Source of the DNA: a virus
Strand: one strand, 5' to 3'
DNA: 53,584 nt
UHGV virus genome: UHGV-0183426
Shown: piece by piece, positions 13,887-15,017 of the stretch
Numbering within the stretch: position 1 is the stretch's first letter
Layout of the letters: every line of letters begins with the position of its first letter
Notes under the pieces: model-generated
Databases searched by the model: none
Seen by the model: the letters and a program-made list of their open reading frames with translations, nothing else
Told to the model about the DNA's origin: nothing
Program-made: the position numbers and the translations under genes

Positions 13887-15017
13887 ATGTCACAAAGAAA
13901 GATCAGCGATGAACAGTTAATCGCTGAACATAATAACGGTCTGACGTATAAACAGATCGCAGAAAAATATGGCATGGCAAAACGCAACGTCGAACGCCTG
14001 GGCGCACGGTTGGCGAAACGCGGTTTAATATCCACGCGCCGCGCACCGGGTTTTGGCGTCAATGGTGAGTCTTTGCTCGTCGATAAGGATGGCAATGTGA
14101 TTATGCGCTGGATTAAAACAGCCCGTGATCGCGATGAAATGGAAAGGCTAATGCAAGCGGCTTGCGATGCTTTCACGGAAGATATGCCACGCGCGGAGGC
14201 CGTGCCAGTGCCGGAAATTGATTTCCAAAAAAGCCTGGCCCTTTATCCGGTATTCGATCTACATATCGGGGCGCTTGCTCATAAAGCTGAATGCGGCGAA
14301 AGCTACGACACCGGGATCGCTGAACGTGTGCTAAATGATTTCTTCGACTACTCGGTAGGCGCTGCGCCAATGTCTGAAAAGGCTGTTTTACTTCTCGGCG
14401 GTGATGTGCTTCATACTGACGGCCTGTTACCAGTGACGCCATCAAGCAATCACGTCCTGGATTGCGATTCACGCTACGCAAAACTGGTTTACGTGGCGAT
14501 CCGGTCGGTCCGGCGTGCGGTCGGGAAGATGTTACTAAATCATAAGGATGTTGAAATCCAGGTGTTATCAGGCAATCACGATCAGTCAGGCATGATTTGG
14601 CTACGCGCGGCGCTGGCGGCTTTTTACGAAGATGAACCGCGCGTGACGGTTGATGTGTCCCCTGCTATCGTCCACCACACACAGTACGGCAAAACATTCC
14701 TTGCTTACCACCACGGGCACACTATCAAAAAGCCGGAAAATTTGTTGGCTGCTTGCGTAGCTGACTGGCGGGAGGATTTCGGAAAGTCGAAATATGTTTA
14801 CGTCCATGTCGGACATTTGCACCATAAATCAGTAACAGAATCATCTATAGGCATAGTTGAACACCACGGCACGTTAGCGGGCAAAGACGCTTATTCAACT
14901 AATGGAGGATGGAGATCGCAACGTTGCGCTGCGGTTATCATTTACAGTCCTGATTATGGCGAAATTGGTCGCTTTGTATATAGGCCTGAAATGGTGGGGT
15001 GTCATGATGTGGGATGA
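13887..15017 (+). CDS. HTH domain fused to a calcineurin-like/SbcD-like metallophosphoesterase
   Basis: 376 aa; N-terminal HTH (LTYKQIAEKYGMAKRNVERL); phosphoesterase motifs FDLHIG, GGDVLHTD, GNHDQ, HHGH, HVGHLHH. Confidence 0.6.
   Translation: MSQRKISDEQLIAEHNNGLTYKQIAEKYGMAKRNVERLGARLAKRGLISTRRAPGFGVNGESLLVDKDGNVIMRWIKTARDRDEMERLMQAACDAFTEDMPRAEAVPVPEIDFQKSLALYPVFDLHIGALAHKAECGESYDTGIAERVLNDFFDYSVGAAPMSEKAVLLLGGDVLHTDGLLPVTPSSNHVLDCDSRYAKLVYVAIRSVRRAVGKMLLNHKDVEIQVLSGNHDQSGMIWLRAALAAFYEDEPRVTVDVSPAIVHHTQYGKTFLAYHHGHTIKKPENLLAACVADWREDFGKSKYVYVHVGHLHHKSVTESSIGIVEHHGTLAGKDAYSTNGGWRSQRCAAVIIYSPDYGEIGRFVYRPEMVGCHDVG

Follow-up and report, generated by a model that had tools for sequence, protein, structure and literature searches.

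What does a metallophosphoesterase do between the replication initiator and the helicase of a temperate phage? The question is raised by a gene at positions 13887-15017 of the virus genome UHGV-0183426, a stretch of 53,584 nucleotides that we call the window, whose product joins an N-terminal helix-turn-helix (HTH) to a calcineurin-like phosphoesterase. An initial annotation, made from the sequence alone, placed it in the slot of a helicase loader and considered both a replication-associated nuclease and a phosphodiesterase of nucleotide second messengers. We find that the gene belongs to PHROG 704, an already catalogued and widespread family rather than a new kind of system, and we put the probability that its product is a standalone, HTH-tethered, metal-dependent DNA nuclease with an accessory early function at about one half.

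An HTH-metallophosphoesterase of PHROG 704

The open reading frame (ORF) is exactly as initially annotated, spanning 13887-15017 and encoding 376 amino acids (aa), and a GGAGG ribosome-binding site precedes its ATG. It matches phrog_704, named ‘DNA repair exonuclease’ and also labelled ‘putative phosphoesterase’, with E = 3e-141 and 472 bits, residues 4-370 aligning to positions 2-389 of the 390 in the profile, and its invariant residues include the family-specific E135, G137, T184, D194 and R196. The family is very common, far more so than chance would allow: tblastn finds homologues in 2,046 of 50,697 phage records, and an exhaustive search of clusters at 50% identity retrieves 4,545 homologous cluster representatives at E < 1e-3 and 992 at E < 1e-30. 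The closest homologue, mEp010_12, is 95.5% identical, followed by those of T1-like Drexlerviridae and Klebsiella Webervirus (~55-67% identity), Jerseyvirus (~40%), Vibrio, Rhodobacter and Ruegeria phages (~32-40%) and Campylobacter phages (26%). The gene is persistent core in 508 of 522 Drexlerviridae, where it lies directly upstream of the lysis cassette (2026 paper, PMC13164509), and 35 of 5,426 complete E. coli genomes hold it once on the chromosome, mostly labelled hypothetical. Its parts in the window are as follows.

13887-15017, plus strand: HTH-metallophosphoesterase ORF, 376 aa, ATG start, PHROG 704 member
13908-14018, plus strand: N-terminal three-helix HTH of the sigma-70 region 4/LuxR type (aa 8-44)
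14067-14177, plus strand: family-specific beta-hairpin (aa 61-76) and long helix (aa 79-97), from the secondary structure of the AlphaFold2 (AF2) model
14226-14981, plus strand: binuclear metallophosphoesterase catalytic core (aa 114-365) with motifs I-V
14256-14264, plus strand: motif I, D124-L-H126, read from the sequence
14400-14414, plus strand: motif II, G172-D173-V-L-H176, read from the sequence
14421-14474, plus strand: family-specific conserved loop after motif II (aa 179-196), GLLPVTPSSNHVLDCDSR
14571-14582, plus strand: motif III, G229-N230-H231-D232, read from the sequence
14712-14720, plus strand: motif IV, H276-G-H278, read from the sequence
14811-14822, plus strand: motif V, G309-H310-L-H312, read from the sequence

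The metal-binding and catalytic motifs of the calcineurin-like superfamily (DxH, GD, GNH(D/E), H, GHxH) are all present, as is its beta-sandwich fold, so the full motif set claimed by the initial annotation is legible, and it is conserved across relatives. The residues of the five motifs are invariant in an alignment of 34 sequences, invariant or at least 90% conserved in one of 58 sequences reaching down to ~30% identity, and intact in 78 of 80 related loci; judged by this conservation, the PHROG 704 protein is predicted to be an active enzyme rather than a scaffold. The family is nonetheless too divergent for the Pfam Metallophos model (PF00149), whose gathering threshold is unmet: the window protein has no match at E < 0.1, and 14 of the 58 relatives match weakly (best E = 5.8e-5). 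Single-protein searches of Pfam, NCBIfam, PADLOC and PDB sequences returned weak HTH matches at most, the PADLOC match, to a CARF model over the HTH region, being at chance level (E = 0.027).

The three helices of the HTH (aa 8-16, 21-28 and 32-44 in the AF2 model) reach Pfam only below threshold in the window protein (E 0.003-0.05), but the domain, weak in a single sequence, is backed at the level of the family, where Sigma70_r4_2 matches 8 of 58 members (best E = 1.5e-9), GerE matches 4 of 58 (best E = 2.4e-8), and HTH_1, HTH_8 and HTH_23 also recognise the N terminus among diverse relatives. A profile of the 58 sequences run against PDB sequences hit GerE, RhlR, FixJ and similar proteins at E ~0.05-1, with a match to T. 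maritima Mre11 that was marginal too. Between the HTH and the catalytic core, the hairpin-helix element acts as a link; its G69 and W75 hardly vary in the diverse 58-sequence alignment, and the Campylobacter and Rhodobacter phage homologues, which align from ~aa 60-69 on, keep it without the HTH. The loop at aa 179-196 has invariant T184, P185, L191, D194 and R196, which makes it a candidate substrate-binding element despite a predicted local distance difference test (pLDDT) score below 50 over residues 179-193.

Substrate and role of the enzyme

A structure search with the AlphaFold model, which the initial annotation had proposed as a check, returned a phosphoesterase fold. Two kinds of DNA nuclease, SbcD/Mre11 and the exonuclease PolD DP1, are the nearest structural relatives of its catalytic core. 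The call of an HTH joined to an SbcD/Mre11-type phosphoesterase is right, and of the two activities suggested for it the nuclease is better supported than the second-messenger option by the nearest folds, the HTH and the toxicity described below. The fusion of an HTH in most family members also fits a DNA substrate.

Published experiments deal with Bas01_0050 of phage AugustePiccard (MZ501051), a 376-aa protein that shares 54% identity with the window protein from end to end (E = 4e-151) and whose gene is followed by a homing endonuclease and lysis genes. Bas01 mutants with missense and frameshift changes in Bas01_0050 escape the reverse-transcriptase defence system DRT7/UG10, lambda-vir escapers of the same system carry mutations in gam, and Bas01_0050 is toxic in E. 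coli, so that co-expression with DRT7 was impossible (2026 preprint, bioRxiv 10.64898/2026.02.16.706125). Bas01_0050 therefore confers, directly or through its activity, sensitivity to a defence linked to DNA metabolism, and one PHROG 704 homologue is implicated as a determinant of the sensitivity of T1-like phages to DRT7/UG10. As the frameshift escapers are viable, the T1-like family member is dispensable for plaque formation. This preprint was the only source of functional data on PHROG 704 that we found in the literature; publications on transposon sequencing (Tn-seq), PUA-Cal-HAD, retron Vpa2, retron Eco2, OLD and Gabija held nothing on this gene.

From these data we infer DNA as the substrate, DNA binding by the HTH and the physiological role. 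The phosphoesterase would be an early, co-transcribed accessory enzyme of PHROG 704, built from a sigma-70-r4/LuxR-type HTH, a hairpin-helix linker and a divergent but, by its motifs, catalytically complete binuclear metallophosphoesterase, and is predicted to be a Mn2+/Mg2+-dependent DNA phosphodiesterase that works with neither a capping domain nor a Rad50/SbcC ATPase. The HTH would hold the enzyme on DNA. During lytic growth it would cut or degrade DNA, whether that of the host chromosome or at ends and secondary structures, and so help with host takeover, the supply of nucleotides or the processing of intermediates of replication and recombination. Toxicity to the cell and sensing by DRT7/UG10 would in turn be consequences of the damage or intermediates made in this way.

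Two side observations concern the coding sequence itself. In the near-identical relatives L013 and L014 (phosphoesterase at L013:6001-7119), motif I carries H126Y, a change that probably inactivates the enzyme and would fit a dispensable or toxic gene. Separately, an 8-bp hairpin (TCAGCGAT ... ATCGCTGA) at 13903-13927, or +17 to +41 of the coding sequence, is conserved among temperate relatives, of which L013 and L017 show a single compensatory change, C-G to T-A, and is absent from T1-like homologues; it may damp translation of a toxic protein.

Genomic context fits a function of its own. We analysed the neighbours of 80 close loci systematically, 24 of them temperate (from IMG/VR) and 56 T1-like. 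The T1-like homologues (54-67% identity) follow helicase, VRR-NUC and Dam genes and stand just before holin and endolysin; elsewhere, Jerseyvirus homologues lie between tail genes, those of Vibrio and Rhodobacter phages adjoin endolysins, and that of a Campylobacter phage, with its HTH missing, lies between DNA ligase and tail sheath. No Rad50/SbcC gene was found among the long ORFs of the window, which besides DnaB are structural by PHROG (tail fibre, J, tape measure, portal, TerL) apart from one of unknown function, and none is annotated beside the homologue in seven other phage lineages. The lack of a conserved partner gene and the contexts that vary with lineage are as expected for an autonomous accessory function.

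Two other functions have to be weighed against these contexts. In T1-like, Rhodobacter and Vibrio phages the gene lies where the early region meets the late one, and its HTH is of a type (sigma-70-r4/LuxR) used by transcription factors. Both would suit a transcription regulator or protein phosphatase, whose HTH would bind an operator or promoter and whose phosphoesterase domain would dephosphorylate proteins, as does the calcineurin-type protein phosphatase that lambda-like phages encode. We hold this reading to be highly improbable, as motif II reads GDxxH where protein phosphatases have GDxVDRG, some family members have no HTH at all and the gene is dispensable for plaque formation. The second function is suggested by 16-17 of the 56 T1-like loci, in which a HAD polynucleotide-3'-phosphatase-like gene (phrog_415), a deoxynucleoside monophosphate (dNMP) kinase (phrog_139) and then the lysis cassette come after the phosphoesterase (for example, L084:7165-7692 and L062:7594-8220); in 17 others a small SH3-like gene (phrog_4788) comes next instead. 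The HAD and dNMP kinase neighbourhood suggests nucleic-acid breakdown and nucleotide salvage, which speaks for the nuclease, but it could also be read as that of a Pnkp-like end-healing phosphoesterase, which would remove 3'-phosphate or 2',3'-cyclic phosphate from RNA or DNA ends and so repair host nuclease damage. The phosphatase module of Clostridium thermocellum Pnkp, a calcineurin-type enzyme, counts in favour of this. So does the next gene in ~30% of T1-like loci, which belongs to the HAD polynucleotide kinase/3'-phosphatase family (phrog_415, C-terminal part of phrog_505; PMC13164509). However, that neighbour is itself of the phosphatase type rather than a 5'-kinase, the adjoining P-loop gene is a dNMP kinase, no ligase is associated, toxicity is not expected of an end-healing enzyme, and neither the window nor most lineages have the HAD neighbourhood, which together make end healing improbable.

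The second-messenger option of the initial annotation, in which a phosphodiesterase acting on cyclic mono-, di- or oligonucleotides or another signalling nucleotide would blunt CBASS, Pycsar, Thoeris or type III CRISPR, gained no specific support, and we consider it unlikely. A partner-less accessory gene that occupies variable contexts and is dispensable in the laboratory does resemble many anti-defence genes, but this function would leave the conserved DNA-binding-type HTH unexplained, and the nearest folds are those of DNA nucleases. The homologue is toxic in E. coli K-12, which is not known to have cyclic-nucleotide signalling defence systems, and its loss allows escape from DRT7 in parallel to the loss of gam in lambda, which points to DNA metabolism. 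PADLOC models are unmatched, and the anti-signalling phage enzymes Acb1 and Apyc1 have other folds.

Several points weigh against the standalone DNA nuclease as well. The functional names given to PHROG 704 are predictions throughout, and the structural margins between its nuclease and non-nuclease relatives are small. The escape genetics come from one preprint on a 54%-identical homologue, with the mutated residues unlisted in text and supplement, and the toxicity of Bas01_0050 could equally stem from the hydrolysis of an essential small molecule. The phosphoesterase lies immediately upstream of dnaB in 24 of 24 close temperate relatives, which fits a replication-linked role too. Finally, the phage already has Abc2, Erf, SSB, NinG and RusA, so that it is hard to see why it would need a further DNA-processing nuclease; the same set makes it unlikely that the phosphoesterase is a RecBCD inhibitor or the sole recombination nuclease.

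With the routine label ‘DNA repair exonuclease’ of a very common family resting on prediction, defining the substrate would help to show what it is that DRT7 detects, what T1-like phages and their relatives do to host DNA, and whether an Mre11-type nuclease can work without a Rad50 partner. A bolder extension, which we offer as possible but doubtful, is that PHROG 704 forms a new functional class of Rad50-independent, HTH-guided, Mre11/SbcD-like nucleases carried by ~4% of sequenced phages, whose lesions or end products would be the signal for DRT7/UG10, and which the mEp010 group would have recruited beside dnaB to act on origin or replication intermediates.

The gene order between initiator and helicase

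The closest relatives of the window phage, the mEp010 group, are Nus-dependent non-lambdoid temperate coliphages (PMC11893012). Around the phosphoesterase gene, the window contains the following features.

11227-11874, minus strand: cI repressor
12180-12434, plus strand: HTH_36 ORF of the initiator region, 84 aa (Pfam/PHROG)
12438-13490, plus strand: Lin1244_N/O-like initiator ORF, 350 aa (Pfam/PHROG)
13491-13886: 397-bp gap with a 33-aa ORF, between initiator and phosphoesterase
14902-15384, plus strand: truncated HNH homing-endonuclease gene (Pfam HNH_3, E = 1.3e-21; phrog_99, E = 1e-50)
15506-15526, plus strand: relic of the old phosphoesterase 3' end, CCTGAATATTCCATTTTGTAA, encoding ..PEYSIL and the stop, recognised against the 3' ends of HNH-less relatives
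15545-16966, plus strand: DnaB-type helicase, P22 gp12-like (Pfam DnaB_C, E = 1.2e-75; 57% identity to P22 gp12)
18009-18440: NinB

The placement between initiator-like ORFs and DnaB given by the initial annotation is correct, though the HNH gene and the 397-bp gap intervene, whereas its proposal of a helicase-loader slot fails on the P22-type nature of the module, the varied contexts of the family, the lack of a loader match and the viable frameshifts in a homologue. In phages of the P22 type, the initiator (gene 18) runs straight up to or into the helicase (gene 12), and no other gene intervenes, so the phosphoesterase is an extra gene and there is no vacant loader slot for it to fill. Homology to a known replication protein family, which the initial annotation had named as the finding that would count against it, was sought in Pfam, PHROG and NCBIfam, and the protein matches no loader or replication family there. 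The linkage of phosphoesterase and dnaB is limited to the mEp010-like group, and we take insertion as the best explanation for a place in the replication module that a single group of phages shows.

The same gene order nevertheless raises the possibility that, in the mEp010 group, the protein serves as a replication accessory factor, for example in helicase loading or origin processing with the initiator and DnaB. The order initiator, phosphoesterase, dnaB is fixed in 24 of 24 close temperate relatives; dnaB starts ~30 bp past the phosphoesterase stop in those without the HNH gene, and nearly the same 14 nucleotides precede the start codons of both genes. A different phage metallophosphoesterase, Bxb1 gp47, is reportedly necessary for phage DNA replication, which would favour such a role by example. 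On the other side, P22-type modules work with initiator and helicase adjacent, and a variable cargo slot parts the phosphoesterase from the initiator in relatives. In T1-like loci, with homologues of 54-67% identity, the window DnaB and O-like initiator are unmatched within 6 kb (tblastn) and lysis genes adjoin instead. Bas01 phages with the frameshifts are viable, loader and replication families are unmatched, and Bxb1 gp47 is of a separate family (phrog_221; hhalign probability 13.5%). We regard a replication factor as quite improbable.

The insertions themselves can be read in some detail. The HNH gene overlaps the phosphoesterase 3' end, its true start probably being an ATG between 14956 and 15007, and separates the phosphoesterase from dnaB. 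It entered ~7 codons ahead of the original phosphoesterase stop codon and swapped the tail ..YYPEYSIL for ..YRPEMVGCHDVG, and the relic of the old 3' end (15506-15526) now lies downstream of the insertion, just upstream of the dnaB ribosome-binding site. Alignment to mEp010 shows that the window copy of the HNH gene is truncated by a nonsense change, GGA to TGA at 15382-15384, at the cost of ~55 C-terminal residues that make up an AP2-like part. Besides the window and mEp010, 2 of the 24 temperate relatives have the HNH gene, and in relatives 0.4-1.5 kb of variable cargo lies between initiator and phosphoesterase. Mobile insertions thus flank the phosphoesterase, and the replication module of the window can be reinterpreted as one of the P22 type, with an initiator and its own helicase, inserted cargo and homing endonucleases, and no missing loader.

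The cargo slots (L013:5043-5966, L019:4870-5823, L018:4830-5966 and L022:4705-5823) hold one of two unrelated genes, which look like mobile or moron genes: one encodes a protein of 307-317 aa that repeats a CxxC...CPKC zinc-ribbon unit, the other a protein of 372-378 aa. The initiator is also variable, with two ORFs in the window (84-aa HTH_36 and 350 aa, together 12180-13490) and a single 332-aa ORF at L016:4056-5054, probably in L027 too, that joins a different HTH-type N terminus to the same C-terminal half; the origin-binding part appears, from these sequences, to be swapped as a mosaic unit. Within the 397-bp gap, an ORF at 13625-13726 with a good ribosome-binding site upstream encodes a 33-aa hydrophobic peptide (MDGKHVFALAFAIAAVIAVNVALFGGLYLLVNP) found by tblastn in 18 of 24 temperate relatives at 64-100% identity, and we found no convincing iterons or origin repeats there. 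Promoter and terminator matches were not above shuffled expectation, and Rfam had no matches in 11000-17500.

The 14-nucleotide direct repeat, (C/T)TGTAAACCGGAGG, lies at 13863-13876 and 15521-15534, ~11 nucleotides upstream of the phosphoesterase ATG and the dnaB ATG, respectively. At up to two mismatches it has three matches in the window against 0.16 expected, and it could be a common translation-initiation context or a recombination footprint. As the copy before the phosphoesterase is not conserved in all relatives, we down-weighted its reading as the footprint of a cassette insertion.

To the left of cI, the window carries a P22-style recombination set (Abc2, SSB and Erf) on the minus strand at 8506-9845 and, at the far end of the leftward region, a set of Q-like, RusA, NinG/Rap and methyltransferase genes at 569-5349.

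8506-8784, minus strand: Abc2 anti-RecBCD protein (phrog_656, E = 2.7e-30)
8800-9204, minus strand: SSB
9204-9845, minus strand: Erf
9757-10287: second HNH endonuclease ORF, overlapping the Erf start
569-1291, minus strand: Q-like antiterminator
1681-2109, minus strand: RusA
2106-2711, minus strand: NinG/Rap
3061-3759 and 4810-5349, minus strand: two DNA methyltransferases

A ‘Gam-equivalent’ anti-RecBCD role of the phosphoesterase in this phage was down-weighted, as Abc2 is already encoded. The minus-strand arrangement of the Q-like, RusA, NinG/Rap and methyltransferase genes differs from lambda, whose nin-Q order is rightward.

Comparison with known systems

To helicase loaders (lambda P, DnaC-like and DnaD-like), the position between initiator and replicative helicase is the only likeness; they share neither sequence nor fold similarity with the phosphoesterase, and the helicase of the window is phage-encoded and P22 gp12-like. 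SbcD/Mre11 proteins are closer in kind, though only 14-16% identical, and the phosphoesterase has their nuclease-type catalytic domain, with a His in motif II and a His in motif III. However, the chain ends just past the catalytic core, where Mre11/SbcD have a capping domain; their Rad50/SbcC partner has no counterpart in the window or in the contexts examined, and the N-terminal HTH and hairpin-helix are not found in Mre11/SbcD. DP1, the small PolD subunit with 3'-5' proofreading exonuclease activity, and the eukaryotic polymerase B subunits, which are inactive, show a low identity of 12-14%, and the phosphoesterase has neither their OB fold nor a polymerase partner. The class III cyclic-nucleotide phosphodiesterases CpdA, Icc and Rv0805 rank below the nucleases, in a comparison with small margins, and lack an HTH.

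Mycobacteriophage Cluster A offers two further phage metallophosphoesterases, A10ZJ24 gp48 and Bxb1 gp47, which like the window gene are encoded in or near replication genes. A10ZJ24 gp48 acts early, is toxic and breaks down host DNA, has nuclease activity in vitro, is dispensable in one host and is needed to overcome host defences (PMC12287305), which makes it the closest functional analogy to the role proposed here, though not evidence of membership in the same family. The two belong to a different family (PHROG 221; 255 aa, no HTH), and we rejected homology to them, since the hhalign match (probability 13.5%) covers motifs III-V only, which are shared across the superfamily.

The nearest system remains PHROG 704 itself, whose Drexlerviridae member Bas01_0050 has the same architecture of HTH and metallophosphoesterase and the same invariant residues as the window protein; an HNH homing endonuclease often adjoins the gene elsewhere in the family, as it does in the window. 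What differs is the setting: whereas T1-like members stand at the end of the early region and adjoin lysis genes, the window gene belongs to a temperate Nus-dependent coliphage and lies in a replication module of the P22 type, with the initiator before it and dnaB after it.

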